Part shown: piece by piece, positions 18,732 to 35,600 of the stretch
Layout of the letters: every line of letters begins with the position of its first letter
Position numbering within the stretch: the first letter of the stretch is position 1
NCBI GenBank assembly: GCA_002412925.1
Contig: DHVZ01000045.1
Coordinates: 1,541-65,540, forward strand
Reading direction: 5' to 3'
DNA: 64,000 nt
Source: Anaerolineales bacterium UBA5195
Lineage (GTDB): Bacteria > Chloroflexota > Anaerolineae > Anaerolineales > Villigracilaceae
Notes under the pieces: generated by a model
Databases searched by the model: none
Told to the model about the DNA's origin: nothing
What the model saw: the letters and a program-made list of their open reading frames with translations, nothing else
Made by a program: the position numbers and the translations under genes

Positions 18732-19202
18732 ATGATTGAATTAGTGATTCCCGGGCGCGGCGCGCTGATCCTCGAACATCTTGTCATGGATGTGAACGGT
18801 ACGCTGGCGGTGGATGGTATACTATTGGAGGGTGTCGCCAGGCGCATCGGCGCGCTGCGTAATCGGCTGACGATCCACCTGCTGACGGCTGATACGCATG
18901 GCGGGCAGGCAGCCATCGATCACTTGCTAAATTTGCAAGCCGTGCGCATCCGGCAGGGTGATGAAGCCGGGCAAAAAGCGGCTTACATCCGGCAACTGGG
19001 CGCGGAGTGCGTGGCAGCCATTGGCCAGGGCGCAAACGATGCCCAGATGTTGAAAACCGCGGCGCTGGGGATCTGCGTCCTGTCTGAGGAAGGGCTGGCC
19101 ATTGAAACCCTGACCTCGGCCGATTTGCTGATGCCCGATATTTTAAGCGCCCTGGATTTGTTCGATAAACCTTTGCGATTGATTGCGAGTTTGCGCAAAT
19201 GA
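18732..19202 (+). CDS. HAD-superfamily 'soluble P-type ATPase'-like hydrolase (COG4087-type)
   Basis: MIELVIPGRG..LVMDVNGTLAVDG..HLLTADTHG..AIGQGANDAQMLKTAALGICV..ALDLFDKPLRLIASLR matches this small family along its whole length. Confidence 0.8.
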   Translation: MIELVIPGRGALILEHLVMDVNGTLAVDGILLEGVARRIGALRNRLTIHLLTADTHGGQAAIDHLLNLQAVRIRQGDEAGQKAAYIRQLGAECVAAIGQGANDAQMLKTAALGICVLSEEGLAIETLTSADLLMPDILSALDLFDKPLRLIASLRK

Positions 19203-20614
19203 CCTTTCCTGAAGATGAAAACTCCCTGAATGATGGCCAAGAGCCATCGGAACAGCCTGAATCCAACCCATTGGAGACAGGCGCTGAATTTGAGTTATCT
19301 GGGGAACAAGTTGTGCCGCCTTTCCCATCCGAGGAAGAGGCCGCGCCAGAATTTGATTTCCCCGATATGGAAGCAGAAGTGGCGGCCTTTCACCGCGAAC
19401 TGGGCGAACGCCAGTTCACCCCGGCTGTGCGTTCGCTCGAGGATGAACCGGCCCGGGAAAGTGCGCCGCGCCGCCGTCGCCGCAGCCAGCGCATCATCGA
19501 ACGGCCTGATGCCAGCGAGCTTGCTGAACGGCTTGAGTCGATTGCTTATCGCGCCGCTCCTACTTTTGATTTCTTCGTGTTTTCCTTCCTGGCCGGATGT
19601 ATCCTTGGGCTGGGTTATATCATCGATATGCCCGCCATCCTATTGCTCGGCATCCTGGTTGCGCCAATTGTTTCACCCTGGGTGGGAGCTGCCCTGGCTG
19701 CCTCCACTGGGGAAGTGCGTTTCTTCGGTCAGACACTTGGCGGATTCATCTCTGCGCTTGTCATGGTTTTTGTGGTCGGCCTGCTGGCCGGGCTGGGTTC
19801 GCGCATCTTCCAACCGCTCACCTCGTCACAGGCTTTTTTGCATTCCCGGTTGTGGTGGCCTGACCTGCTCCTGCTGGTTCTTGGAACGGTCATCCTGGTG
19901 ATTGCTTTTATTCAGACTGAAAACAAACCAGCCCTGGCCAGCCTGATGGTGGCCTACGAACTCTATCTGCCGGTCAGCGCTGCCGGTTTTGGGCTGGGAT
20001 CAGGTGTTCAAGGCTTATGGCCCGAAGCCGGGCTGGTCTTCTTGATCCACCTGGCGCTTTCGCTGATTGTCAGCCTGATCGTGTTTTTCTATATGGGTTT
20101 CCGCCCACTGGAGCCTCGGGGATATTTGCTGACTGCCGGTATCGTGGTGGCTTCGCTGGTCATCGTGGCGGGATGCAGCCTGATCAATATCCGCGGCGAC
20201 CAGGGAGAGACCACGCCCATCATGGCAGCTGCAACCCCGACCCTCAAGCCTTCCCTACAGACGGTGACACCCACTCCCGCTGCTATCCCGCCTACCTCTA
20301 CGCGCCGGGCGACCACGCCAACCGCAGCCGCCACGCCGACGGAAGGCTTTACTCCCGGCCCCACGTTGTTGCCCACCCCGGTCTATGGACGGGTGCAATC
20401 GCAATCTGGCGGTGTATATATTCGTGTCAAACCGGGTGGGCAGACGATCACCACTGTTGAGAATGGCTATCTGGTCGAAATTCTGGGTGACGCGCCAGTC
20501 ATCCTGGAAGGCAGCACCTGGATCCACGTCATCGTCAAAACGCCTGCGCGTGATATCGACGGGTGGGTGTTATTGAATTTGATTACCACCGCAACTCCCT
20601 CTGGTTCGCCGTAA
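19199..20614 (+). CDS. Membrane protein with acidic N-terminal region, multi-TM core (possibly DUF389-like), Pro/Thr linker and C-terminal SH3b-like domain
   Basis: ATGA overlap with the upstream gene. About 6 TM segments. C-terminal GGVYIRVKPGG..GYLVEILGD..WIHV..DGWV resembles bacterial SH3. Confidence 0.5.
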   Translation: MTFPEDENSLNDGQEPSEQPESNPLETGAEFELSGEQVVPPFPSEEEAAPEFDFPDMEAEVAAFHRELGERQFTPAVRSLEDEPARESAPRRRRRSQRIIERPDASELAERLESIAYRAAPTFDFFVFSFLAGCILGLGYIIDMPAILLLGILVAPIVSPWVGAALAASTGEVRFFGQTLGGFISALVMVFVVGLLAGLGSRIFQPLTSSQAFLHSRLWWPDLLLLVLGTVILVIAFIQTENKPALASLMVAYELYLPVSAAGFGLGSGVQGLWPEAGLVFLIHLALSLIVSLIVFFYMGFRPLEPRGYLLTAGIVVASLVIVAGCSLINIRGDQGETTPIMAAATPTLKPSLQTVTPTPAAIPPTSTRRATTPTAAATPTEGFTPGPTLLPTPVYGRVQSQSGGVYIRVKPGGQTITTVENGYLVEILGDAPVILEGSTWIHVIVKTPARDIDGWVLLNLITTATPSGSP

Positions 20615-22166: not shown

Positions 22167-22201
22167 AAAACGCCCGGACAGGGGAAACCTGTCCGGGCGT
22201 T
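22167..22201 (-). terminator. Terminator of the minus-strand operon (hairpin shared with the convergent PGM gene)
   Basis: 12-bp stem CGCCCGGACAGG/CCTGTCCGGGCG with a 5-nt loop. The minus-strand reading is followed by UUUUCGUUU. Confidence 0.75.
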
Positions 22202-22217: not shown

Positions 22218-22892
22218 TTAGTGAGAGAGCGGTGCCTGGCGTAAGCGCCGCGCCAACAGGATCACAGCGACGAGGATAATCGAAAGGATGAACAGGCCGG
22301 GCAGCCCGACCTCATCGGCAAAACCGGTCTTGGCAAGCTGGCTGGTACCCGTGGCCTCAGGCGTGCCTGGCGTCCCGGCAGATTTGACAGCTGCGCCGGG
22401 TGTACCTGAAGTAACCGCTTGCTGGGCAGTGGTTGTTTCTTGCGCCGCGGCCAATTGGGTTTGCAAGGCTTGGACGGTAGCCGTGGCCGGGTCGCTGGAT
22501 GGAACCGGGGAAGCCGTGCTGGTGGCAAACACAACCACAGGCGTTTCGGTCGGTTCAGGGGTGGCCTCTTCGGTTGGTGGCAGGGTCGGCGTGAACAAGG
22601 CCGCTTCCTGGGTCTGCTGATCAACAAAAGCTGTCTGGGTAAAAGCCGCGATATTGGCTTCCTGGGTGGCGGCCCGCATCGCATTTTGGCCTGGTAGCCA
22701 GACCACAGCAAGGACGGCCATACAGATGAGCGAGAGCAAGACAATGGCCCCCAGGATAATCGCAGCAATCAGGAAGGTGCGATTGTTCCCTTCGCCTTCT
22801 TCTGGCTGTTCGGGGTCAGTTGATCCGGGTTCAGGAGCGCCCAGATTATCGGGTTGCGGTTCATCATCGTCGAAAATGAATGTGTTGGCCAT
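22218..22892 (-). CDS. Ala/Thr/Pro-rich envelope protein with N-terminal TM anchor and C-terminal LAKTG-TM-basic tail (sortase-signal-like)
   Basis: GAGGAG RBS. Acidic N-terminus, TM FLIAAIILGAIVLLSLICMAVLAVVW, and a low-complexity region. The C-terminus is LAKTG + GLPGLFILSIILVAVILLA + RRLRQ. Confidence 0.6.
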   Translation of the reverse strand: MANTFIFDDDEPQPDNLGAPEPGSTDPEQPEEGEGNNRTFLIAAIILGAIVLLSLICMAVLAVVWLPGQNAMRAATQEANIAAFTQTAFVDQQTQEAALFTPTLPPTEEATPEPTETPVVVFATSTASPVPSSDPATATVQALQTQLAAAQETTTAQQAVTSGTPGAAVKSAGTPGTPEATGTSQLAKTGFADEVGLPGLFILSIILVAVILLARRLRQAPLSH

Positions 22893-22925
22893 GATTCTTT
22901 TCTCCTCGCTGGTTATACTTATATT

Positions 22926-23981
22926 TTACCCCAGCACTTCCAAATTGGTGAGTGGAACAATGATTTCATCGCCAGTTTCCAGGCGTATTTCGGCGACCTT
23001 GGCCTTCAAACCATTTGCCAGGGTGGCCGGGTTTGCAGGCATTTGCATCAGGGTGCCAACCTGTGATGGGGCAATCAGATTAATGACCCGTACAACCTGA
23101 CCGGGCGCGAAAGTTTCCACTTCGCGCAGTTCGGGCGGTTCCTGGGAGACCGGCAGGGGAATGAAGACCTCGGGGCGGGTGCCATTTAAACGATCATAAA
23201 CCTCGGCGTTCAGGGCAACATCGCGCTTGATATTGGTTGAGAGCAGTTTATATGCAATGGAGTTCATCGGACGGCGGCCAAAACCATCTGTGAGAACAAT
23301 TGGAAATGCCGCTTGCAAGGCCAGGGGCAACAATGCCGGAGACATGCTGGACAAGATTAATCCGCGTACTGGAAGCTCCATGGCATTTTTGATGACTGCC
23401 GGGTCTTCGGCGCAGCCTCCCAGGATGATCGAACCGCGAATGCTGACATCCAGCCGGTTGGGAGCGAAGATTTCATCAGCGCGTTCCATCACACTGACCA
23501 TGACACCGGTTTCCAGCCGCCCATTCCCCCACAGGCCCTGAACGACAGACCCGGTCGAGCGAATGACCACACCGCGTTCTGGGATGATTTCTGTAACAAC
23601 GCCGGGAATTGCCGCCGCCAATTCGAAGGATGAGCCGCCAGTCTCGAGGATGAGTTTTCCACCGCCCATCGCCACCACGCGCCCGTCTTCAGGAGATTTG
23701 GCTTCACGGGCAAACAGGCCCGTTGATTCAGCAATGAGCTCCCCTTTGCCGACCTTTTGGCCTTTTTTGACTTTGATGAAACCCGCCGCACTGCGAGGTG
23801 AGACGCGCAACAATTTGGCCACGTCCACAATCAGGTGCTTGCGTCCAATCAGAGCTTCGGCCACGACATCTGTTGGGCCGACTTTTTGATCAAGTTTTGC
23901 GATGACGCGCCCGTCCACAGGCAAGAGGCGCTTGCGGATGATCGTGGTCAGGGGCAGGATATGCGTGATGGGGGCTAACAT
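22926..23981 (-). CDS. Unknown protein with a barrel-sandwich-hybrid (lipoyl/HlyD-like) segment; last-but-one gene of the operon
   Basis: ATG 23981 with a GGAGG RBS, 1 nt after the upstream TGA. IKVKKGQKVGKGELIAES is a hybrid-barrel-like hairpin. No catalytic motif was recognised. Confidence 0.55.
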   Translation of the reverse strand: MLAPITHILPLTTIIRKRLLPVDGRVIAKLDQKVGPTDVVAEALIGRKHLIVDVAKLLRVSPRSAAGFIKVKKGQKVGKGELIAESTGLFAREAKSPEDGRVVAMGGGKLILETGGSSFELAAAIPGVVTEIIPERGVVIRSTGSVVQGLWGNGRLETGVMVSVMERADEIFAPNRLDVSIRGSIILGGCAEDPAVIKNAMELPVRGLILSSMSPALLPLALQAAFPIVLTDGFGRRPMNSIAYKLLSTNIKRDVALNAEVYDRLNGTRPEVFIPLPVSQEPPELREVETFAPGQVVRVINLIAPSQVGTLMQMPANPATLANGLKAKVAEIRLETGDEIIVPLTNLEVLG

Positions 23982-23982
23982 C

Positions 23983-25734
23983 TCAACCTCCCAGGGTTTC
24001 AAGCCACTTTTGGGCCAGTTCGCGGCGTAGGGCGGGTTCGGCGGGCAGGCGCAAAGGACGCCCGCGTGCATCGATGACGATACCCAAAGATGATCCAATC
24101 ACTTCCACTTCCCCGGCGCGGCCAGGGCCGAGTCCCACGTCAGCGCGCAACAGGGGGCGGAGTTGCAGGCGGGCATTCTGGCCGTTCTCCAAGGGCAGAA
24201 CTTGCAGGTTGCCCATTTTCACTTCAGAAGTCATTTCGGTGCCATCATCGCGCATCAGCTTGGCGCGCACGATTGGAGTACCGTAACTGGCATTGCTGAC
24301 CGGGGAGATAACTGTTGCAAGATAAGCCAGCGCGCCAGAATCGATGACCTGGATAGGCAAAATATTGTTTGCTTCAGCGCTCGCGCCGAGCATCGCCAGC
24401 ATGTTGTTCTGGTCAAGAGCCAGTGTGGCAATCCCGGCTGGCTGCAAACCGTCGAGCAGCATGAGCAGTTTCTGGCCCGGGGTGGGCGCACCGGTGACAG
24501 CTGCGCCGCCTGCCAGGATGGGTTCAAACGCGGGCAGGAGCCCTGTACGCGGCCGAAAACGTCCTGGCAGGCGCTGGAGCATCCAGCGCGCAGCGAGCTG
24601 CAGGTTTTGGCGCACAATGGCCTGTTCGATGGCTAATTCTTCAACCGTTGCCGGGATAAAGGCGGGGTAAAGTGATTTTTGATAGAGATAATTCCGAACG
24701 ACATCGGCGGGCAGGTCAAGTGGCAGCCAGCGGGCTATTTCATCCACTGACGTGTACTTGAGCAAACCAGCCAGCGCCTCGCCCAACCCCAGTTGCGGGA
24801 AGACATTCAGGTGCAAATCGCCGCTGAAGGATGCGCCCATCGAGATTGCCGAAGCGCCTACATCAATGCTCAGAACGCCCTTCCCGGAGCGAAAATAGCT
24901 TGAGAGGAAGCGCACCATCCGTCCCTGCGCGTAAGACGAAGGCATGACCATGCCACCAGATAGCGTACGAATTTCCTCAAGCTCTGGCATTTGCTTCTGG
25001 CGGATATTGACCACCATACTGGCTAACTCACGTTGGGCCGGGGCGAGATCTTCAACTTCCAGCGATGGTCGGATATTGGGGCTGACCTGCACGATGGAAG
25101 CGATGCTGCTCAACGTGGCTTGCGCGTCTTGTGCCAATGCCTGGTTCCCGGCATATAAGACCGCCGGACGTTTGGCTTCAGGAAGCAGATATGCACCCAG
25201 CCCGATAATCTCCAACATCTTGGAAACGGAATGGGAAGCTCCTCCGTCTACCCCGCCTGCAACCAGGATCAGTTCTGGGCTGTAGCGCGAAATGACATCG
25301 ACCTGCTCGTCAGAATCACGCCGATCATTCAGACTGAGGCTGCCTACTACGCGCGCATACGTGGTTTGGGCCAGGCTCTCAGCGGATTTCAGCGATATAT
25401 CCGGCAATAATCCAACGATCAGGGTCTTGATGACCGGGCCAACGGACAAGGTGGTGACCATGCTGTCTACACCGGCTCCATCCGGCTGGGATGGGATCAG
25501 TAGCCGCCCTTCATCATCCATCAGCGGTTTGCCAATCAGGGTTTGCAGGTTTTCGAGAGCCAACTGCACACCAATCATCACGTTGCGCACAGCCGCGCCA
25601 GAGGTGGTGGGTGATTGGCCCATGCCGATGAATCTGTAACCGTTTTCGACCACATCAAAATACGCAGCGCGCGTGTTGACTGCGCCGATGTCGACTGCCA
25701 GCAGGGAATTACCTTCTACAAGGGAAGTGGGCAT
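23983..25734 (-). CDS. ASKHA-fold ATPase resembling GlmL/MutL (glutamate mutase accessory) / EutA-type proteins
   Basis: Phosphate-1-like LLAVDIGAVNTRAAYFD, PELILVAGGVDGGAS (compare the ILLAGGTDGG motif of GlmL), and a second nucleotide-fold motif VLSIDVGASAISMG. 583 aa. Confidence 0.6.
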   Translation of the reverse strand: MPTSLVEGNSLLAVDIGAVNTRAAYFDVVENGYRFIGMGQSPTTSGAAVRNVMIGVQLALENLQTLIGKPLMDDEGRLLIPSQPDGAGVDSMVTTLSVGPVIKTLIVGLLPDISLKSAESLAQTTYARVVGSLSLNDRRDSDEQVDVISRYSPELILVAGGVDGGASHSVSKMLEIIGLGAYLLPEAKRPAVLYAGNQALAQDAQATLSSIASIVQVSPNIRPSLEVEDLAPAQRELASMVVNIRQKQMPELEEIRTLSGGMVMPSSYAQGRMVRFLSSYFRSGKGVLSIDVGASAISMGASFSGDLHLNVFPQLGLGEALAGLLKYTSVDEIARWLPLDLPADVVRNYLYQKSLYPAFIPATVEELAIEQAIVRQNLQLAARWMLQRLPGRFRPRTGLLPAFEPILAGGAAVTGAPTPGQKLLMLLDGLQPAGIATLALDQNNMLAMLGASAEANNILPIQVIDSGALAYLATVISPVSNASYGTPIVRAKLMRDDGTEMTSEVKMGNLQVLPLENGQNARLQLRPLLRADVGLGPGRAGEVEVIGSSLGIVIDARGRPLRLPAEPALRRELAQKWLETLGG

Positions 25735-25740
25735 AAGGAT

Positions 25741-26430
25741 TTAGAAGATCAAGTTGGCAATAAAATCGATGACCGATTGAACCCGGTCGACCAAAGCTGT
25801 CAGCGAGGCTGCCAGCACCCCGGCGAAAATTGCGCCGAGTGTGATTACGATAAAAACTTGCCCGAGCAGGGCAAAGAAACCTACAAACCAGCCGCGTTTT
25901 CCACTGGAGGTGTTTTTCCCACGGATCGTAAACTGGAAATATGCCAGTGTCGTGACAGTGCCGATCAGGGCAAACAATCCGGCTGCCAGGTTTGTCGCCA
26001 AGCCGCCAACCGTCTCGCTGGATTGCGTGTCAAACATCCCGGCTGCGGCGAAGACTTGCGGGAAGATTGTTCCCAAAACAGCCCCGCCGATGGCAGCGGC
26101 TGTTCCCACCCCCACCAGAAAGGCAACGACCGGACGCCCAACCCACTCGGTGCCAGCAAACATCTTTCCCAGCAGAAGCAGGCTCAAGACGAGGGGAAAA
26201 GCCAGGAAGATACGTTCGCCCAGCCCCCCACTGACCAGCGGCAGGAGCATTTTTTCGACAATCACAAGCCGGAAAACTGCCACCGCAATATAACCGGTCG
26301 AAACCCCCACAAATGCGTGGACCGCCGCCCGAAACGCCGGGTTATCGCCGACCACGTAGCTCAGGATCAGCAGGGTGAACAGGAAGCTGAGCAAACCAGT
26401 GATGAAATCTATCGAAATAGCGCCCAGCAT
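25741..26430 (-). CDS. Polytopic membrane protein (unknown)
   Basis: 229 aa with about 6 TM segments. Its ATG abuts the upstream TAA (26433-26431). Confidence 0.6.
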   Translation of the reverse strand: MLGAISIDFITGLLSFLFTLLILSYVVGDNPAFRAAVHAFVGVSTGYIAVAVFRLVIVEKMLLPLVSGGLGERIFLAFPLVLSLLLLGKMFAGTEWVGRPVVAFLVGVGTAAAIGGAVLGTIFPQVFAAAGMFDTQSSETVGGLATNLAAGLFALIGTVTTLAYFQFTIRGKNTSSGKRGWFVGFFALLGQVFIVITLGAIFAGVLAASLTALVDRVQSVIDFIANLIF

Positions 26431-29370
26431 TTATGCCTCATCCTGTTCCATTTTTTTAGCGCGGCGGGTGCGGGCGCCTTCTATCAGGCCCCAGACCCCG
26501 CCAACCATGATCAGCAGTTCGGCGGCGAAGACAGCCACCCCGAAGGCATCCCAGGAGGAACGCGCCTGCCCGGAGCCTGTCATCTGGTTTTCATAAAGTA
26601 TGCCATCCTCCAGCCCGGCCAACAAACCCTTCAACTGGCCCGAAACCAGATATGGGCGGATCATTGGTTCAGCCTGGGCGCTGACGACCATCAGCATTGG
26701 TTGTGGCCGCAGGGATGGTTCGGCCTGTTCGATCCACAGGCGTCCTGTGTCAGGATTGTCCGTCAGCACGAGCAGCGTGGAGAAATAAGAGAGCTTTGTG
26801 ACATTCTCAATTGTCACGGCTTTGAGCGCATCCTTATCCCATAGATTTCCCAGGAATAAATCTTGCCCAACAGTTTTTCCAGGTAGTTCAGCAAAGACTT
26901 GGATACCGCCTGCACCGCCTGGCAAATAACCCAGGTTGACATATTGCGCGCCCAATTCGTAGGGATACTGCGCTGTAAATTTTTGCAGGAAACGTTCTGC
27001 CAGATATGAGCCGATGGGTGAGGTGGAAATGAATGCCAGACGCACATTTTTGCTCATCAACTGTTTGATCACTGGTCCTGCGGCGAGTTCCAACTCTCCG
27101 GCAAATCCGGGTTGGTAATCAACCACCACAAGCACTGTCGCGTCATCAGGTAAACCGGCAATCGTATCCTTGAAAGCGCCAATTCCGCTCTGACCGGCGG
27201 GCATGTCAGGAGCCGGAAAAACGGGGCTGCCGACGATATCTTGCAGCAATGCCCCCAGCAAAACGGCTGCCAACAGCACTCCCGCAATTGCCCAACGCAG
27301 CGGACGAATGATAAGCGCTTCAGGATGCCGTGAGACCGCCTGGGGCGTGCTTTCAGAATTCAAGATGTTCTCCAGCAGGGCAGCCTGCGCCCGCTGGGTT
27401 TCATCAACCTGCAATTTGATCGAATAGACTTTGGGTTTGTGTACGTCAGGGATGCCCGGTTGGACGGGTAAGACATTGCGCAAACCGGCCAGGGGGCCGT
27501 GGCTTTCAACTTGCTGTTCTTCCGCTTCGTCAATTCTTTCGCCCATCACATCTTCCACCGGACGCATGGCCTGCACCCAGGAGGGCAGGTCTGCGGGGCG
27601 GAGATTGTCTTCGGTCAGTTTTTCAGCGGCGACCGCATCGCTCAATTCTGCTTCGGTTGGTGTAAACCCCGAAAGCCAATCTGGCATATCCAGGGAAAGA
27701 ATGGAATCCAGGTTCTGTTCTTCGCCGTATGCCGGGAGCGGGGCTGGCGTTCCCGCCTCGTCTGGTGCGGGTTCAATCGCAGCGGGCTCTGGTGGCAGAA
27801 CCACCTGTTCCCCGTCTTCAGCCGTTATTCCTGCTTTCTGGTCGGCTGCCGCGACTGCATCTATTGTTTCGAACGAAACAGGTAATTCTGCTTCACCCGG
27901 CGCCTCGCCAAGCGCCGATTCTTGCGAAATTTCGACAGGTTTCGGGATTTCGATTGACTCGCCAAGCTTGGACATCCAATCAGGCAGTTCCCCGCCATCA
28001 TCCAATGGGCCAAGTTCTCCCAGCGCGCCTGTTTGGAACGGTTTGCGCGGGCTGGGTGGTTCTTCGGGTTGATCTGCAGGTTTTTCTCCCATCGCCGCAG
28101 CCAGCCAGGATGGCAGTTCGCCAGTTACCGGGGCGGGTTCGACAAGATCTGCTGGTTGGCTCTCAGGTTCGGGTTGTTCTCCCTGAATACCAGAGATCCA
28201 ATCGGGGACATCAGCTGCCGGAACGGCTTCTTCAACATCCGATTCATGGGCGGCGGGCGGGGCTTGCAAATCCATCATCCAGGATGGGGCATCGCTTTCA
28301 ACAGGTTGGGATTCGCCTGGAACAGTTCCCATTTCGAGAGTTGGTTCAGCAGCCACCGGTTCTGCGGGCTGAGAAGCGCTCATCAGGCTTGCCAGCCAAT
28401 CAGGGGCTTCAGCAGCCGGGGCATTGTCTGCCGGGGTTTGTTCAGGCGCAGTTTCGGCAATCTCTCCGAGGCTTGCCAGCCAATCGGGGGCATCTGCAGC
28501 CAGGGCATTGTCTGCCGGGGTTTGTTCGGGTGCAGTTTCGGTGATCTCCCCGAGGCTGGAAAGCCAATCAGGGGCATCTGCAGCCAAGGCATTGTCTGTC
28601 GGGGTTTGTTCGGGTGCAGTTTCGGTGATCTCCCCGAGGCTGGAGAGCCAATCGGGGGATGTGCCATCGCTTGGAGGTTGTTCTCCATCTATCTGGCTGG
28701 TGGAGGTTGAGTCTTTTTGAGTTGGATGGGCGGCCTCATCCTGGGCTTTAAGCGCGGCCAGCCAATCAGGCATAGCTTCGGAAGATTGTGAAGCTGCGTT
28801 GGCGTTTTCATCAAAGTTGTATGTGGCTGGCTGATCGTCAAAACCCCAATTTAGCTCGCTTGCCACAGGCGGTTGATTGGATTGGGCTTCCGATTCCAGG
28901 CTGGAAAGCCAATCTGCTGGTTGTTCGGCTGGCGGTTCAGGAGCCGGGATAGGTTCCACCGGCGCGGGCATACTATTTTGGAGGCTTTTCAACCAGTCGG
29001 GGGTGTCTTCTTCGTCGTCACTGGCCTGCGACAACCCGGCCAGGAAATCGAGCGGGGAGGCGGGTGCTTTTTGTTTTGGCGGAACAGGTTTTTCTGGCGG
29101 TAATGCAACCGGCTCGACAGGTTCAGACACCTCGCCTGGTTCCGCTGCGAGCTGGTTGTCCCCTTCACTGGAGGCCTTGCGCACATCCCTCAGCCAGCCG
29201 GGCAGGGTACGTTCCAGGTCGGAGGTATTCTTTTTTACCGGCATATCACCGGGGTGCAGGGGGGGCAGGGGTTCGGTGGCGCTTCGCTTCAGGGCAGTTC
29301 CACAATACTGGCAAATTTCGACAGTATCGGGGTTGGGCTTCCCACAGGAAGGGCAATTCGATGTGTTCAT
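26431..29370 (-). CDS. Zinc-ribbon protein with a long acidic PDWL-motif repeat region, TM, globular domain and C-terminal TM
   Basis: N-terminal CPSCG..CQYCG. About 15 copies of [LMAV]P[DS]W[LMIV]xx[LI] across roughly 640 acidic residues. TM WAIAGVLLAAVLLGALL, a domain of about 270 aa, TM FGVAVFAAELLIMVGGVWGLI, and a basic tail. The ATG at 29370 forms a TGATG junction with the upstream gene. Confidence 0.7.
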   Translation of the reverse strand: MNTSNCPSCGKPNPDTVEICQYCGTALKRSATEPLPPLHPGDMPVKKNTSDLERTLPGWLRDVRKASSEGDNQLAAEPGEVSEPVEPVALPPEKPVPPKQKAPASPLDFLAGLSQASDDEEDTPDWLKSLQNSMPAPVEPIPAPEPPAEQPADWLSSLESEAQSNQPPVASELNWGFDDQPATYNFDENANAASQSSEAMPDWLAALKAQDEAAHPTQKDSTSTSQIDGEQPPSDGTSPDWLSSLGEITETAPEQTPTDNALAADAPDWLSSLGEITETAPEQTPADNALAADAPDWLASLGEIAETAPEQTPADNAPAAEAPDWLASLMSASQPAEPVAAEPTLEMGTVPGESQPVESDAPSWMMDLQAPPAAHESDVEEAVPAADVPDWISGIQGEQPEPESQPADLVEPAPVTGELPSWLAAAMGEKPADQPEEPPSPRKPFQTGALGELGPLDDGGELPDWMSKLGESIEIPKPVEISQESALGEAPGEAELPVSFETIDAVAAADQKAGITAEDGEQVVLPPEPAAIEPAPDEAGTPAPLPAYGEEQNLDSILSLDMPDWLSGFTPTEAELSDAVAAEKLTEDNLRPADLPSWVQAMRPVEDVMGERIDEAEEQQVESHGPLAGLRNVLPVQPGIPDVHKPKVYSIKLQVDETQRAQAALLENILNSESTPQAVSRHPEALIIRPLRWAIAGVLLAAVLLGALLQDIVGSPVFPAPDMPAGQSGIGAFKDTIAGLPDDATVLVVVDYQPGFAGELELAAGPVIKQLMSKNVRLAFISTSPIGSYLAERFLQKFTAQYPYELGAQYVNLGYLPGGAGGIQVFAELPGKTVGQDLFLGNLWDKDALKAVTIENVTKLSYFSTLLVLTDNPDTGRLWIEQAEPSLRPQPMLMVVSAQAEPMIRPYLVSGQLKGLLAGLEDGILYENQMTGSGQARSSWDAFGVAVFAAELLIMVGGVWGLIEGARTRRAKKMEQDEA
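28385..28665. repeat. 84-nt tandem repeat (about 3.3 copies) inside the PDWL protein gene
   Basis: The anchor GCCAATC recurs at 28395, 28479, 28563 and 28647, exactly 84 nt apart. It encodes the near-identical 28-aa units PDWLSSLGEITETAPEQTP(T/A)DNALAADA. Confidence 0.85.
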
Positions 29371-29993
29371 CAATTCCCCCCGTAAGGCCGGTCAGCGCCA
29401 AACAGGATGCGCAAACCGGTGGTGAGCGTGCCCAGCGCCACTCCGATTAAGATGCCGCGCGCGCCGCCCGTAGCCAGGACATCTGAAACCAGGGGGCGCA
29501 CTTTGTCACTCATGAAGGGTAATTGGCCAATATAGGGCAGCGGCCCCAGGCCGAGCAGAATGAGCAGTGCCGCTGCCAGGAACAAAATCGAGGCCCAGTC
29601 AGCGCGGACGCGTAATAACCGCACGCTGGCATAGAGCAATGTGACCGCCAGCACAGCCATCAGGCTGATTTCGGCAGGAATCATGATGCCATCCAGCATC
29701 ATTTTTTGTAAAGGCTCCAGGCCGGGCACCAAGCTGAAGGTCATCGTAATGAGCATAAAAAATAGCAGGATCAGGCTGTTGATCGAGCCGGGGCGCCGCT
29801 CGCGGATTTTTTGCAGGTGGACCGAAAACAAATTCCAGATCCCAATAAACACCGCAACCCCGGCCAAGATGACCGCCCACTGGAGCAGGATGAATCGGAA
29901 CGGATTAACAGCCGGAACAAAGTATCCGAGCAGGACAATCATCCCGACGCTGATGGCGATAACAGCATTGGCTGCAGAAAATATGCGTTTCAC
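29370..29993 (-). CDS. Polytopic membrane protein (unknown)
   Basis: GTG 29993 forms a GTGA overlap with the upstream stop. About 6 TM segments. The longer ORF to 30050 would overlap the upstream gene by 60 nt. Confidence 0.55.
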   Translation of the reverse strand: MKRIFSAANAVIAISVGMIVLLGYFVPAVNPFRFILLQWAVILAGVAVFIGIWNLFSVHLQKIRERRPGSINSLILLFFMLITMTFSLVPGLEPLQKMMLDGIMIPAEISLMAVLAVTLLYASVRLLRVRADWASILFLAAALLILLGLGPLPYIGQLPFMSDKVRPLVSDVLATGGARGILIGVALGTLTTGLRILFGADRPYGGN

Positions 29994-30736
29994 AGAAGAC
30001 CTGCCAGTTTTAGGACTGCTCCGGCAACCAGGGCTGCAATAATCAACCATCGCAATAGATCTTGCACCACCAGGCTGGCAGCGTGGGTTGCCCCGGCCTG
30101 GACGTAGGCCCCCGCGGCGAACAGTTCTTCCCCAATCAGCGGTTCGGCGGAGGCGGCATACAGCACTGCCTGGGCCGGCAGGCTTTCACTGGCAGCGATG
30201 ATTGGAGCGTTCTGACGGTCAGCGGCCTCGATCAGCAAGCCAACTTCCGGGCCAAAGCTCCCAATCAATATATTGGTGGAGATATTTTCATCACGGATGG
30301 AAGGCATAACCCCCGCCGCATAGGAAAGCGGGGTCAAGCCGGTCAGGCGGGCATGATTCATATCGAAAAGTTGGTCAACTGCCACAGACTCGTGGGCGGA
30401 GCGCAGCGTATCCTGTGCCAGCAAGTTGAGCACCCCGCTGCCGGTCGTAGCCACTGGCGGACAGTCGCTCAAGGAGGTGATCTCGCCCAGGCGGCGCAAC
30501 AATGCCAGGCCAGCCAGCGCAGAGGCGCCTGCCGGGGTCAGGACGCTGGCGCTGCCAAGTGAAACGTGCAAGCGTGTCCCATCCTCGACAACCATGCTGG
30601 CTGCGCGGCGGACGCGTGAAAAAGCGCGGATATTGCGAAATGAAAATGGGGAGCGCCGGTGAATGAAAGCAAATACCGCCATAAAAACGGCCACCAGCCC
30701 AACGATACCAAGCCCGGCAAAACCTATGGGGGTCAC
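29990..30736 (-). CDS. Bitopic protein: N-terminal TM, soluble domain, C-terminal TM (unknown)
   Basis: GTG 30736 forms a GTGA overlap with the upstream stop. TMs GLGIVGLVAVFMAVFAFI and LIIAALVAGAVLKLAGLL. Confidence 0.55.
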   Translation of the reverse strand: MTPIGFAGLGIVGLVAVFMAVFAFIHRRSPFSFRNIRAFSRVRRAASMVVEDGTRLHVSLGSASVLTPAGASALAGLALLRRLGEITSLSDCPPVATTGSGVLNLLAQDTLRSAHESVAVDQLFDMNHARLTGLTPLSYAAGVMPSIRDENISTNILIGSFGPEVGLLIEAADRQNAPIIAASESLPAQAVLYAASAEPLIGEELFAAGAYVQAGATHAASLVVQDLLRWLIIAALVAGAVLKLAGLL

Positions 30737-30981
30737 TGCGGCTTTCCTTTCAGCAAGTTGATAAAAGCCCTGGCTTCATCTTCCTGCTCCAACAAGTCTG
30801 CCAGCGCGCGCAATCCCTGATTGGCAGAAGCCGGGGCAAAGGGCTGACCAAGGTAAAGCGCCTGCGCACCCAGAACATTCAACGGGCCTCCGGCTTCGAG
30901 AAACCAGGCTGCCAGATCAGTCAACCCCTGCCTGCGCAGGAAATCCGTCCATATCGGCCAATACGCGCGTGACGAATTCAT
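30733..30981 (-). CDS. Small soluble protein (82 aa), first gene of the operon
   Basis: ORF with coding-like composition whose stop overlaps the next start. No recognised family. Confidence 0.45.
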   Translation of the reverse strand: MNSSRAYWPIWTDFLRRQGLTDLAAWFLEAGGPLNVLGAQALYLGQPFAPASANQGLRALADLLEQEDEARAFINLLKGKPQ

Positions 30982-31188
30982 ATTATTTTAAAGTATAGCA
31001 TATTATAGAACAAGCGTCACAGGATTGCATATCGTCTTTATTACAAGCCTCAAGAAGCTTCGCTCTTTGGGAATCTCCGCGGTAAGCCCCGCATACAACG
31101 GGGGAGGCCCTATATCCAGATTGGGAATTGTGAGTGATAATTGGGATGGTTCGATAAAATTCTTTGTACAGATGTTCCCGGAGAATAT

Positions 31189-31626
31189 ATGCAAACGATC
31201 AGTTCACTCGGCCATGCCGAGGCCCAGAAAGCCATCGAAGTTATCCAGGCTGAAATGCTCAAACGAGGCCAGGCTGCCGTCATCGCTGTTGCGGATGCGC
31301 ATGGTGAGTTGATTGCCCTGCTACGCGTGGACGGCGCGCCGTTTACCTCGATCCAGATTGCGGCGAACAAAGCCTATACCGCAGCGCGTGACCGCAAGGC
31401 CTCGCGTGATATTGGTCAAGCCTCCCGTGATCCCCAGAATGGTTTTGAGATTGCCTATTACGGTGACCCGAAAATCCTGGGCTGGGGCGGCGGATTACCC
31501 GTTGTGCTGGAGAACGCTGTCGTTGGCGCGGTTGGCGTCAGCGGCCTGCCTGAAGCCGAAGACATCGAGTTGGCTCAGATGGGTGTCGAAGCGATTCGGA
31601 ATATGGCGGGGAATTTTCAGAGATGA
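31189..31626 (+). CDS. GlcG/HbpS-like (DUF336) haem-degrading/haem-binding family protein
   Basis: ATG 31189 with a GGAG RBS. AVIAVADAHGELIALLRVDGAP..SIQIAANKAYTAA..GGGLPV..GAVGVSG is the typical DUF336 pattern. Confidence 0.75.
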   Translation: MQTISSLGHAEAQKAIEVIQAEMLKRGQAAVIAVADAHGELIALLRVDGAPFTSIQIAANKAYTAARDRKASRDIGQASRDPQNGFEIAYYGDPKILGWGGGLPVVLENAVVGAVGVSGLPEAEDIELAQMGVEAIRNMAGNFQR

Positions 31627-32234
31627 ACGAAGAGGCCTCCCTTGACCGGCGGATTACCCGTACCAAAGTTGCCATCCGCGCGGCGTTGGTGGCTTTGATC
31701 GAGGAGAAAGGGTTCGAGGCGTTATCGGTGAGCAATATCACCAAGCGGGCGGATATCAACCGCGGCACATTTTACCTGCATTACAAGGATAAGTTTGACC
31801 TACTTGAACAGACCGAAGCGGATATCATCCGGGATTTCGAAGAAATCATCCTGCGGGCCAATGCCTTGAATTTTGCGGATTTCAACAGCGTGGATAAGCC
31901 GCTGCCGGTGGTGGTGGTTTTGTTCGAATATTTGAAGGAGAATGCCGCCTTAATGCACGCCATTTTGGGTTTGAAAGGCGGCATCGCCTTTCAAACCCGG
32001 CTGAGACAAACGGTGGAGAAAAACCTGAAGCTCGGCTTCCTGGCCGGGATAAAAGCCGAAAACTTCCTGGTGAAGAGTGAATACCTGATTTCTTATGCGC
32101 TTTCCGCCCATTTTGGCGTCATCCAGACCTGGCTGCAAAAGGGTTGCATGGAATCTCCGCATGAGATGGCAATTGTCCTGTCGAAATTGTCGTTGTATGG
32201 ACCGCTGCGCATGACAGGTTATGTTTTGCCATAA
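31623..32234 (+). CDS. TetR/AcrR family transcriptional regulator
   Basis: ATGA overlap with the upstream gene. N-terminal HTH TKVAIRAALVALIEEKGFEALSVSNITKRADINRGTFYLHYKDKFDL. Confidence 0.85.
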   Translation: MNEEASLDRRITRTKVAIRAALVALIEEKGFEALSVSNITKRADINRGTFYLHYKDKFDLLEQTEADIIRDFEEIILRANALNFADFNSVDKPLPVVVVLFEYLKENAALMHAILGLKGGIAFQTRLRQTVEKNLKLGFLAGIKAENFLVKSEYLISYALSAHFGVIQTWLQKGCMESPHEMAIVLSKLSLYGPLRMTGYVLP

Positions 32235-32483: not shown

Positions 32484-32616
32484 CGTTAATCGAAAATCAT
32501 TTTTTTGCAAGTGCGTTGCCCTAGCCCGAAAGGTGATCGTTGTTGAACGGGTTCATGCCAGGCGAAAGGACCTTTTCAACTGGGTGTGGCGCACTCAATC
32601 TGTTCGTGGAGTACCT

Positions 32617-35600
32617 ATGAAGACTTATTCTTACCGATTGGGGGTCGACATCGGTTCGATGACCGCAAAAGTTGTCATTCTTGACCGAAACGGTGAAATC
32701 AGTTTTTCAGCCTATCGTCGTCACAACACGGAAACGCTGGCGACACTGCAATCCATCCTGTGTGAGGCGTTGGAAAAACTTGGCAATGCCAATATCGAGT
32801 TCCTGGTGACCGGTTCTGCCGGGATGGGCGTGGCTGAAAAATATGACCTGCCGTTCATTCAGGAGGTGGTTGCCTCTGCCGAGGTGATTCACCAGCGCTA
32901 TCCGCAGGTGCGGACGCTGATCGACATCGGCGGGGAGGATGCGAAAGTCATCTTTTTCGATGAGCAGTACCGTCCCGACATCCGCATGAATGGTTCGTGT
33001 GCCGGGGGGACGGGCGCGTTCATCGACGAGATGGCAACCTTGCTGGGAGTGCCCGTCTCGGATTTGGACAGCCTTGCCAGCCGTTCTACCACTATTTATC
33101 CGATGGCCTCGCGCTGCGGGGTCTTTGCCAAAACCGATTTACAGAATCTGCTCAGCCGCCAGGTGCCGAAGGAGGATATAGCCGCGTCTGTCTTTCATGC
33201 GGTGGTGCTGCAAACACTGGCAACCCTGGCGCGTGGGCGGGATCTGCGCCCCACCTTGTTATTTAGCGGCGGGCCGTTTACGTTCATGCCCTCGCTGAAA
33301 ACGGCGTTCCTCAGGGTGTTGAACTTGTCGGAAACCGATGTGGTCAACGCGGAATCACCGGAGTTGCTGCCAGCGTTGGGAGCGGCACTTGCACAGAACG
33401 TGAGCCGAAGGGCGGGAACGATTCAGGGGTTGATCGACACTTTAGCGGAGGAAAAAGTCCATGCCCAGGCGCAGGTAAACCGGCATGAGCCTTTGTTCGA
33501 GTCAGCAAAGCAGTATCAGGATTGGGTTGAGAATCACAAAAATCAGCGGATTGAAAGAATTGACGTAGCAGATTGCGCTGATGATGATTATTTCCTCGGA
33601 ATTGATTCGGGCTCGACAACCACCAAGGTGGTGCTGATTGATGCGCAGGGACGGGTGGTCTTCAGCTATTATGCCAGTAATGGCGGGAATTCCATCAAAG
33701 CGGCACAAAACGGGCTAACGAAGTTGCGCGAGGCATTTGCCCCCCTGTCCTTCGGACATCCCCCCATTTTAGACTGCACTTCGTCGAAAATGGGGGGAAC
33801 GAGAGGGGTGGGGGAGGCAGGGAGGGGATCGGTGCCGCGCATCGCCCGCAGTGTGGTGACCGGTTACGGGGAGGATTTGATCCGCGCGGCGTTTGGCATG
33901 GATGAGGGGATGGTCGAGACGCTGGCGCATTTTCGGGCCGCGCAGGCCTTCGATCCGCAGGTGACTTTTATCCTGGATATCGGCGGGCAGGATATGAAGG
34001 TGATTTTCATCAAAGACGGGCAAATCCAGAAGATCGAGATCAACGAGGCCTGTTCATCGGGCTGTGGCTCGTTCATCGAGTCGTTTGCGCGCAACATGGG
34101 CTACGGGGTGGCAGATTTTGCCGGGCTGGCTTGCACCGCCGAGTCGCCGTATAACCTGGGAACGCGCTGTACCGTCTTTATGAATTCGCGCGTCAAACAG
34201 GCGCTGCGCGAAGGTGCAAAAATCAACGATATTTCGGCAGGGCTGGCTTATTCGGTCATCAAAAATGCGCTCTATAAGGTTTTGAAAATCACCAATACGG
34301 ATATTTTGGGCGAACAGATTGTGGTGCAGGGCGGAACCTTCCGCAACCCGGCGGTGCAGAAAGCGCTGGAAACACTGATTGGCCGCCCGGTGGTCTGCCC
34401 GGATTTGGCAGAGTTGATGGGCGCCTATGGCGCGGCGCTGACAGCACGCGATACATGGCAGGCGATGTCCCTTGAACTCGGCCCTCTCCCAGAGGGAGAG
34501 AGGGTAAGCACGTTTATTGGGCTGGAGAGCGTGGACGAGTTAGGCGAGTACCGGCGGCATGATATCCGCTGCCGGGGCTGCGAGAATAATTGTACGGTCA
34601 CAAAGCTCGGTTTCCCAAACGGGAACAGCTTCTTTTCAGGCAACCGCTGTGAGAAAATCTATTCCAATGGTGGGAAAGCCGAGCCCCGTGCTGGAACCGG
34701 GACTACCTCGCGGAAGGGCGTCAGTGTCCCGGCGCTCAAATATGCGCTGTTGTTCGACCGCGATGGTTCGCCCTCACCCTCCGCCCTCACCCAAAAGGGG
34801 AGGGGACTTAAGCCCCTCTCCCCAAGGGAGAGGAGCTGGGGTGAGGGAAATCCCCTTACGATTGGCATTCCCCGCGTACTGAATATGTTTGAGAACTACC
34901 CCTTCTGGCACGCACTATTCACGGAATGTGGGCTCCAAGTTCGGCTTTCCGCGCCATCGAGCAATGCGCTCTATCAGGGCGGGGCGGCGCAGATCATGTC
35001 GGAAAACCTGTGTTTTCCCGGTAAACTGGTCAGCGGGCATATCATGGACTTGATTCGGGCCGGGGTGGACCGCATTTTCTACCCGATGGTTTTTTACGAG
35101 AAAAGCGAATTCGCCGACGCGAACAATACCTATAACTGCCCGGTGGTCTCTGGCTACCCGGATGTTATCCGCTCGGCGATTGACCCTCAGCACAACCACA
35201 ACATCCCGCTTGACATGCCCGCGATCACCTTCCGCGATGACGATTTGCTGGATAAGGCTTGCACAAAGTACCTGCGCGGGCTAGGCATCCAGCCTGGCGT
35301 GATCAAAAAGGCGCTCAAAAAAGCGCGGGTGGCGCAGGACGAGTTCAAACAACAAGTGATTGAGATGGGTGCGGAAGTCATCCGCGATTCGGAAACCAGC
35401 GGGCGACCGCTGATCCTGCTGATGGGACGACCCTATCACATTGACCCGCTCATCAACCACAACGTCCCCGACTTACTCACCGATTTCGGCGTGGATGTGA
35501 TGACCGAAGACTGCCTCCCGATGACCGGCGAGGCGCTTAATAACCGGTATGTCATGACGCAATGGGAGTACTTGAATCGTTATTTCCACGCTGCACGCTG

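Follow-up and report, generated by a model that had tools for sequence, protein, structure and literature searches.

An eight-gene operon conserved in the Anaerolineae that may encode an envelope-spanning, peptidoglycan-tethered complex

We analyzed a 64,000-nucleotide stretch of contig DHVZ01000045.1 from Anaerolineales bacterium UBA5195 (GenBank assembly GCA_002412925.1), here called the window, and describe in it a tightly packed operon of eight minus-strand genes, which we designate G1 to G8 in their order of transcription. The eight genes are kept together in the same order in related genomes, and the cassette matches no described system. We tentatively propose that the products form a single multi-subunit machine, spanning the envelope and tethered to peptidoglycan, with a role in organizing the wall or envelope (morphogenesis or maintenance) in filamentous monoderm bacteria. 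Operon structure, invariant co-occurrence and the complementary topologies of the proteins together suggest one membrane-spanning complex.

Organization of the operon

A preliminary description of this DNA had reported eight packed minus-strand genes with overlapping or abutting junctions. All eight are found in the list of open reading frames (ORFs), with the coordinates given in Table 1, and every junction reads as described. The G1/G2 and G2/G3 junctions are GTGA overlaps, G3 and G4 overlap by 1 nt in the sequence TGATG, and the TAA of G4 abuts the ATG of G5 with 0 nt between them. The gaps are 6 nt for G5/G6, 1 nt for G6/G7, and 33 nt for G7/G8, the last containing a GGAG; six of the seven junctions are thus either a start/stop overlap or a gap of 0-6 nt. 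The genes called in two related loci (L001 and L003) repeat this junction pattern. The tightly packed eight-gene operon is confirmed.

The boundaries proposed earlier were also recovered. A terminator had been placed at 22167-22201, and we find a 14-bp hairpin there, at 22201-22169. The region at 30982-31188, described as an AT-rich divergent promoter region, has a GC content of 41.5%, compared with 57.2% for the operon, and hexamers that resemble promoter elements occur in it on both strands. The best such site for the operon is a minus-strand -35/-10-like pair at 31020-30992, GTGACG-17-TATACT, with a TG at the -10. Since this -10 element sits just 11 nt ahead of the G1 start codon, with no Shine-Dalgarno sequence, the transcript may be leaderless, or nearly so, at its first gene. 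We found no Rfam match to a riboswitch or other leader RNA, including the cobalamin riboswitch, upstream of the operon. The transmembrane topologies that had been assigned to the proteins were reproduced by a simple hydropathy scan.

Conservation of the cassette

That the genes would be co-conserved as a block had been put forward earlier as a refutable prediction. Using each of the eight window proteins as a query, we searched 90 fetched loci. The full set of genes occurs in identical order in 21 of the 21 loci that span the block, and wherever a contig reaches the relevant position the individual gene is there (28/28, 28/28, 32/32, 36/36, 71/71, 49/49 and 41/41; 28/28 for G1). Co-conservation of the eight genes persists to about 50% identity in G6. 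Beyond this, a remote clade, with about 30% identity in G7, has the same eight-gene layout in three loci. One G4 orthologue of this clade (L089:4518-7533) consists of two overlapping ORFs, of 270 aa (the zinc ribbon) and 741 aa (the remainder), either through a frameshift or assembly error or as a natural split.

The proteins differ in how well they are conserved. By identity to the window proteins they rank roughly as G6, then G2 and G7, then G3 and G1, and last G5, G8 and G4. There are more than 1,600 homologues of G6; the best 120 share 63-91% identity and nearly all are 581-585 aa long, and those of the 120 that carry a label are named Anaerolineae or Anaerolineales. Homologue labels overall are Anaerolineae/Chloroflexota. 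A profile search with G7 of 1.84 billion representative sequences returned 643 clusters (at 50% identity) with E<=1e-30; the best 150 of these are almost without exception about 350 aa long, with identity down to 30%. The number of clusters and the near-uniform length of the best 150 point to a large, old family with a single architecture. The start chosen earlier for G7, which makes it 351 aa, is borne out by its listed homologues, nearly all of which have a length of about 350 aa.

Table 1. Coordinates of the operon and of features within and beside it (positions in the window)
Feature	Position	Strand	Description
G1	30733-30981	minus	82 aa
G2	29990-30736	minus	248 aa, GTG start
G3	29370-29993	minus	207 aa counted from GTG; alternative upstream ATG at 30050
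G4	26431-29370	minus	979 aa
G5	25741-26430	minus	229 aa
G6	23983-25734	minus	583 aa
G7	22926-23981	minus	351 aa
G8	22218-22892	minus	224 aa
G4 zinc ribbon, aa 6-27	29290-29355	minus	PF13240, E=5.7e-6; CxxC...CxxC
G4 motif array, aa 55-605	27556-29208	minus	14 copies of [DE]-Φ-P-[DS]-W-L-x-x-L
84-nt tandem repeat	28385-28658	minus	3.3 copies, 91% matches; inside G4 motif array
G4 C-terminal module	26482-27315	minus	TM1 (first transmembrane segment) aa ~686-716, domain aa ~717-944, TM2 aa 945-963
G8 sorting signal	22218-22337	minus	LAKTG, GFADEVGLPG, transmembrane segment, RRLRQ tail
Intrinsic-terminator-like hairpin	22169-22201	minus	14-bp stem, 10 G-C; closes operon
AT-rich divergent intergenic/promoter region	30982-31188		promoter-like hexamers, both strands

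The ATPase G6 and its partner G7

G6 had been likened to the GlmL/MutL-type ASKHA ATPases, and the family assignment is secure: residues 12-464 match PF13941 (MutL/GlmL) with E=6.5e-54 and 183.8 bits against a gathering threshold of 27, and this is the sole Pfam family reported for G6 at E<=0.1. The nucleotide-binding motifs are DIGxxxTR (15-22), GGVDGG (160-165), DxGA (291-294) and G410, and of these D15, G17, T21, R22, G160-G165, D291, G293 and G410 are invariant or nearly so. An AlphaFold2 model (pLDDT 90.7, pTM 0.90) has the ASKHA fold and divides into a core that ends near residue 465, a beta domain spanning roughly 470-556, and a terminal helix. From the conserved motifs and the model we predict that G6 is a competent ATP-binding ASKHA ATPase. 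We considered and rejected the possibility that G6 is an equivalog of GlmL. On NCBIfam NF040745 its score is 70.8 bits, where the equivalog cut-off is 475, and on TIGR01319 it is 49.2 bits against 204; its genomic context lacks glutamate mutase genes.

Beyond the MutL core, G6 has about 120 extra C-terminal residues, made up of the beta domain and the conserved helix. The terminal helix, RRxLxKKW[LI]WxLGG (aa 568-583, nt 23983-24030), is conserved in every clade, the remote one included. In a loose way it is reminiscent of the membrane-targeting helices at the C-termini of MinD and FtsA, and its hydrophobic moment is only moderate (muH 0.24). A Foldseek search of the Protein Data Bank (PDB) with the G6 model returned generic ASKHA neighbors, with TM-scores (TMq) of 0.27-0.31 and 9-11% identity, in the order acetone/acetophenone carboxylase subunits, N-methylhydantoinase, PilM, FtsA and Hsp70s; the FtsA:FtsZ-peptide entry 4a2a is among them. 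Of these neighbors, PilM and FtsA use membrane-protein peptides as docking sites, and Hsp70s act as peptide clamps.

G7 has neither a transmembrane segment nor a signal peptide in the hydropathy scan. The barrel-sandwich-hybrid hairpin that had been suggested for it is echoed by a match to RnfC_N that lies below threshold (E=0.0017, 18.8 bits against 25.6). PF13375 is precomputed on several G7 orthologues, and PF00467 (KOW) on some homologues. The AlphaFold2 model of G7 (pLDDT 87.7) gave no Foldseek match at E<=1e-3, and no full-length relative, in the PDB or BFVD. At the level of single domains, its barrel-sandwich region finds BesA and, at low probability, RnfC (8ahx_C) and NqrA (8acy_A). 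Such domain-level echoes suggest that G7 combines a barrel-sandwich-hybrid region, a swivelling-type alpha/beta domain and a KOW/Tudor-like barrel.

In a profile search against the PDB with G7, the only match is that of its invariant QGLWGNG (aa 148-154, nt 23520-23540) to the cell-wall-binding CW_7 repeats of the Cpl-7 lysozyme (5i8l), with a whole-sequence E of 7.7e-6 and E >1 for each single repeat. This match is probably coincidental, as a beta hairpin is predicted at QGLWGNG.

The G4 motif array

G4 consists, in order, of an N-terminal zinc ribbon, an acidic disordered region, a transmembrane segment, a domain of about 230 aa, a second transmembrane segment and a short basic tail. Both the zinc ribbon and the PDWL repeats noticed earlier stand up to closer inspection. 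The CxxC...CxxC ribbon is kept in 45 of 45 orthologues. The disordered region has an excess of acidic residues (median net charge of -0.13 per residue), and in the window 14 of its 15 tryptophans sit in a repeated short motif, represented by 13 strict [PA][DS]W[LMIV] sites plus LPGWLRDV. From 545 instances we derived the consensus [ED][ED][ED]-[L/D]-P-[D/S]-W-L-x-x-L-[G/R]; an example 15-mer motif peptide is ADAPDWLSSLGEITE.

The motif appears to have no counterpart elsewhere in the neighborhood. Scored with a position-specific scoring matrix, the 14 window sites reach 11.5-25.4 bits, far above the best value of 6.2 bits outside G4 in the long ORFs of the window, and no motif array was found in any other protein among approximately 858,000 residues of six-frame ORFs from the 90 loci. 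The motif is essentially private to G4. Two further candidates were rejected on the same matrix: the C-terminal helix of G6 (KWLETLGG), at -3.5 bits, and the N-terminus of G1, at 4.5 bits against the background maximum of 6.2.

The number of copies varies from 5 to 26 among 45 orthologues, and the copies at the two ends, LPxWLRDxR at the start and ELPSWVxAMRP at the finish, are fixed in position. Within the window array, an 84-nt tandem repeat encodes the 28-aa unit PDWLSSLGEITETAPEQTPxDNALAADA, showing that the array grows by recent duplication. A motif that is specific to G4, conserved in kind, variable in number and fixed at its two ends is typical of multivalent docking sites, and we would expect the array to serve as such.

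Between the array and the first transmembrane segment lies a conserved GPLAGLRxVLP segment. The domain of about 230 aa between the two transmembrane helices is well conserved and, since a cytoplasmic location is expected for zinc ribbon and basic tail alike, probably faces outward, toward the wall. The C-terminal module has no Pfam match in 53 orthologues and no PDB sequence or profile match. The preliminary description had also seen a loose resemblance between this module and G2. That resemblance is not upheld (BLASTP E=0.33, hhalign probability 2.7%), and by the positive-inside rule the loops between the transmembrane segments of G4 and G2 lie on opposite sides of the membrane.

The membrane proteins G2, G3 and G5, and the small protein G1

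G2 belongs to DUF6754 (PF20539), with E=2.7e-19, 69.7 bits against a gathering threshold of 27, and 231 of 257 model positions covered. Hydropathy places its transmembrane segments at residues 7-25 and 223-241. The loop of about 195 aa between them is predicted to lie in the cytoplasm, given the R/K-rich flank that follows the first segment. About 38 residues of G2 are invariant, and many of these are polar.

G3 has six transmembrane peaks and a conserved C-terminus, LRVLFGxDRPYGGN, that is placed in the cytoplasm, and G5 has about six to seven transmembrane segments. Both have conserved charged residues, and neither has a cysteine among its invariant or near-invariant residues. No Pfam family was found in G3 or its 28 orthologues (29 sequences), and no Pfam or NCBIfam family in G5. 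We considered the possibility that G3 and G5 are duplicates of each other and rejected it, as BLASTP was non-significant and hhalign gave a probability of 0.3%. Sequence and profile searches of the PDB yielded no meaningful match for G2, G3 or G5, nor for G6 or G7.

G1 likewise has no Pfam or NCBIfam family. Its invariant residues are W8, W11, L28, P33, Q40, P47, L64, F73 and L77, and its central stretch, LAAWLLEAGxPLxxLGAQ, is moderately hydrophobic.

The sorting signal and membrane anchor of G8

G8 begins with an acidic N-terminal tail ending in EESNNRTF, followed by a transmembrane segment, an Ala/Thr/Pro-rich spacer and a C-terminal sorting signal; hydropathy places its two transmembrane segments at 45-63 and 195-213. 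The LAKTG tail had been remarked on from the window sequence, and the alignment reveals a conserved sortase-type signal. L[PA]x[TS]G, mostly as LPNTG, is present in 40 of 49 orthologues and the remainder have near-variants; in every case GFADxVGxPG, a hydrophobic stretch and ARRLR come next. Given this signal, G8 is probably processed by a sortase encoded elsewhere.

The other end of the protein is conserved as well, with an acidic tail of about 40 aa and then a transmembrane segment of 26 aa. The conservation of the EESNNRTF tail and the transmembrane segment makes the N-terminus look like a retained membrane anchor and not one that is cleaved. If the N-terminal tail is indeed retained and a sortase processes the C-terminus, it follows that G8 would be anchored both to the membrane and to peptidoglycan.

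Genomic neighborhood

Synteny is conserved in the downstream flank, which contains a gene for a PGM/PMM-type mutase and a DUF389 gene. In the window, the DUF389-related membrane protein (19199-20614) includes a linker rich in Pro and Thr, with a small domain at its C-terminus, and gave no NCBIfam match. The GC content of the operon is close to that of adjacent 2-kb windows (0.56-0.58), and a search for plasmid-borne copies of the cassette found none. As GC content matches the surroundings, flanking synteny is conserved and no defense families are present, the cassette is most likely native to the Anaerolineae, with the character of a vertically inherited core-genome or housekeeping unit.

In approximately 23 related loci, a divergent gene encoding a B12-binding domain lies upstream of G1 together with meaB (e.g., L001:2341-3806 and L003:3246-4669); this B12-binding-domain gene is 86-98% identical between loci. 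The pair is absent from the remote clade and from the window, where its position is occupied by a GlcG/haem-degrading-like gene and one for a TetR regulator (31141-32234). The neighborhood is intriguing, since G6 belongs to the family of a glutamate mutase (B12) accessory protein, but the association is not a fixed one.

Farther upstream in the window, a plus-strand ORF of 1529 aa (32533-37122) begins with a BadF/BcrA-type ASKHA motif, GVDIGSMTAKVV, and by eye looks like a fused activase/dehydratase-type protein. In the remote clade, two loci have a gene for PspA/IM30 (membrane-stress/ESCRT-III-like) two to three genes downstream of the cassette (L089:14482-15177 and L090:14219-14953), adjoining response-regulator and histidine-kinase genes, and in L088 and L089 a regulator with AAA_22 and Trans_reg_C domains immediately follows G8. 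The full remote-clade cassette in L090 (GCA_035464315.1, DATHSI010000065.1) is in a metagenome-assembled genome (MAG) labeled Candidatus Sulfomarinibacteraceae (Acidobacteriota), which may reflect mis-binning or horizontal transfer outside the Chloroflexota.

A possible envelope-spanning machine and its alternatives

In the machine that we propose, the ATPase G6 and its tightly coupled partner G7 would be cytoplasmic and would dock on a membrane platform formed by G2, G3 and G5, possibly together with G1. G4 would be the scaffold, with its ribbon and its acidic disordered array of 5-26 docking motifs in the cytoplasm and its loop of about 230 aa facing the wall, while G8, after sortase cleavage, would tie the complex covalently to peptidoglycan through its flexible Ala/Thr/Pro spacer. 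Binding of the motifs to G6 or G7 is a step that we infer. Through ATP binding and hydrolysis, G6 would power cycles of assembly or of conformational change on the multivalent G4 array, which G4 and G8 would relay to the wall side.

Several points weigh against this proposal. The physical (in the preliminary description, "stoichiometric") complex is read from gene order, and the role in morphogenesis from architecture and phyletic distribution. The fold of G6 does not tell an enzyme from a scaffold or a chaperone, as its structural neighbors are generic and carboxylase subunits rank above PilM and FtsA. With its many invariant polar residues, G2 could be an enzyme, in which case the role would be metabolic or biosynthetic instead of structural. 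There is no ORF with a TLxTC sortase motif in the 64-kb window, and the NCBIfam LPXTG-anchor model does not report G8. Finally, the taxonomic range is taken from the labels of MAGs, and one remote locus is labeled Acidobacteriota.

It may be that the machine has a more central part, as a morphogenetic machine ranking with the elongasome and divisome, in which an Hsp70/FtsA-like G6, with G7, would cycle on the FtsZ-tail-like motifs of G4, and G8, a sortase substrate of a new, doubly anchored type, would couple it mechanically to peptidoglycan to organize wall growth or septation in the filamentous Anaerolineae. We consider this unlikely.

The cassette might alternatively encode a transport or secretion apparatus, with G3 and G5 as a conduit, G6 providing energy or gating, G7 as an adaptor, and G8 or an envelope polymer as cargo. 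Two polytopic proteins with conserved charged residues would suit such a role, as would the sugar-phosphate mutase conserved downstream, and the barrel-sandwich echoes of G7 to BesA, RnfC and NqrA recall the barrel-sandwich hybrids of membrane-fusion proteins. However, no transporter, ABC, secretion-ATPase or membrane-fusion-protein family was found in any of the proteins or in 29-60 orthologues, and the PDB profile searches with G3 and G5 were empty. G7 cannot be a periplasmic adaptor, as it has no transmembrane segment or signal peptide, and ASKHA ATPases are not known to energize transport. A transport function seems improbable.

A system like the divisome or cytoskeleton, in which G6 would polymerize or act like FtsA and be recruited by a G4 array resembling the FtsZ C-terminal peptide, is quite unlikely in our estimation. 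The FtsZ peptide is D-I-P-x-F-L in E. coli and B. subtilis, and the [DE]-Φ-P-x-W-L core of the G4 consensus from 545 instances resembles it. FtsA, PilM and 4a2a are among the structural neighbors of G6, its conserved basic C-terminal helix ends in GG, and the labels are those of a filamentous lineage. These likenesses are offset by the membership of G6 in PF13941 instead of the FtsA, MreB or PilM families (the structural matches have a TM-score of about 0.3), by the only moderate amphipathicity of its tail, and by the absence of FtsZ and of any dcw gene from all 90 fetched loci.

The gliding machinery of the Chloroflexota is unknown, and the cassette might be a gliding or surface motility machine of the Agl-Glt type, with G4 resembling GltJ and G8 as the wall anchor. 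G4 does have a comparable layout of zinc ribbon, disordered region and transmembrane segment, and the G8 spacer has a weak match to the NCBIfam GltJ model (E=2.7e-4). That match amounts to 20 bits against a cut-off of 450 and lies in low-complexity sequence, however, and Pfam and NCBIfam searches found no GYF domain and no Agl/Glt, MotA/TolQ-type or adhesin genes. Cultured Anaerolineae are described as non-motile, and the conservation of the cassette is housekeeping-like. We regard such a machine as very unlikely.

The match of G6 to PF13941 and the upstream B12-binding gene and meaB of some 23 loci raise the thought that G6 is a GlmL-type chaperone or reactivase of a B12-dependent mutase, the membrane genes being passengers or involved in cofactor traffic. 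There is only a very slight chance of this: the scores of G6 on the GlmL models are far too low, the cassette has no glmE/mutE-like gene and the upstream B12-binding pair is not glmE, Rfam finds no cobalamin riboswitch, and G6 is coupled to seven non-metabolic proteins, with the eight genes staying together in the window and the remote clade where the B12/MeaB pair is missing. A degenerate relative of Rnf/Nqr, with G7 corresponding to RnfC/NqrA, G3 and G5 to RnfA/E, and G8 to RnfG, can be set aside almost entirely: weak matches of G7 to RnfC_N and TIGR01945 and of the N-terminal transmembrane segment of G8 to RnfG, the Foldseek listing of 8ahx_C and 8acy_A for G7, and the fit of G3 and G5 to RnfA/E in size and number of transmembrane segments are outweighed by scores far below all cut-offs, Foldseek superpositions with a TM-score of about 0.17 and a root-mean-square deviation >20 Å, the lack of conserved cysteines in G3 and G5, and the absence of any Rnf-Nqr, FMN_bind, Fer4 or Complex1_51K family, with none in G3, its 28 orthologues or the window G5.

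Significance

In anaerobic digesters, activated sludge, sediments and the subsurface the Anaerolineae belong to the most abundant, and also the least cultured, bacteria, and how they build multicellular filaments and an unusual monoderm envelope is an open question. Because the unit is preserved whole over a range of protein identity from about 90% to about 30% and has no described match, it is a strong candidate for lineage-defining cell biology. If the proposed machine is correct, it would extend the roles of the GlmL branch of ASKHA/actin-fold ATPases outside B12 enzymology, would bring to bacteria the multivalent arrays of short linear motifs that are well known in eukaryotes, and would add to the sortase substrates a protein that is possibly retained in the membrane, as a covalent tether between membrane and wall. 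With a parts list, a motif consensus and the conserved residues at hand, the system is directly testable.

Comparison with known systems

We searched Pfam, NCBIfam, PADLOC, the PDB by sequence and profile, the PDB and BFVD with Foldseek, and the literature. Only G6 (PF13941), G2 (DUF6754) and G4 (zinc ribbon) reach any family, and the defense models of PADLOC-DB gave a single chance-level match, to G8 (E=0.036). The preliminary description had recognized no characterized system and had left this open to refutation by sensitive profile search; our profile, PDB and Foldseek searches also found none. In the literature we found nothing on DUF6754, on PF13941, on GlmL with ASKHA or on conserved signature proteins, only unrelated papers for PDWL, nothing describing such a system in the Chloroflexota, and nothing relevant on Anaerolineae FtsZ, Chloroflexota actin-like proteins or Chloroflexi sortase. 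On these negative searches we rate the cassette as new in kind. Its individual parts nevertheless bear comparison with several known systems.

With its PF13941 match, its ASKHA phosphate and adenosine motifs and its hydantoinase-type Foldseek neighbors, G6 resembles the branch of GlmL/MutL and hydantoinase A. Unlike GlmL, it is always embedded between genes for membrane proteins, carries the C-terminal extension described above and scores below the GlmL cut-offs. The Rnf/Nqr complexes share with the cassette a barrel-sandwich-hybrid motif at the N-terminus of G7 and, in RnfA/E, proteins of a size echoed by G3 and G5, but the cassette has no cofactor-binding domains, no match to the Rnf-Nqr family and no conserved cysteines in G3 and G5.

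GltJ of the Myxococcus Agl-Glt machinery has a zinc ribbon, a long disordered linker and a transmembrane segment in an envelope-spanning assembly, much as G4 has an N-terminal zinc ribbon, a disordered linker and transmembrane segments. G4 differs in having no GYF domain, the NCBIfam GltJ match falls on G8 and not on G4 (20.1 bits against 450), and no other Glt or Agl protein is encoded.

In PilM-PilN-PilO, FtsA-FtsN/FtsZ-tail and MreB-RodZ, a cytoplasmic actin-fold ATPase engages the short cytoplasmic peptides of bitopic membrane proteins that extend toward the wall, as G6 might, and the layout of G8 (cytoplasmic tail, transmembrane segment, spacer) is similar to that of RodZ and PilN. No cassette protein is a member of these families, however, and no pilus, dcw or mre genes are adjacent; nor do the PilM, FtsA and MreB systems have a counterpart of the G4 motif array, DUF6754, G3, G5 or G7.

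G8 is like the LPXTG surface proteins processed by sortases in having L[PA]x[TS]G, a hydrophobic stretch and a basic tail across clades. It is unlike them in its N-terminus, which looks like an acidic cytoplasmic tail with a long transmembrane segment and not like a typical cleavable signal peptide, and in the unusual conservation of the GFADEVGLPG that follows the motif, and the mature protein, in contrast to the known substrates, would be doubly anchored.

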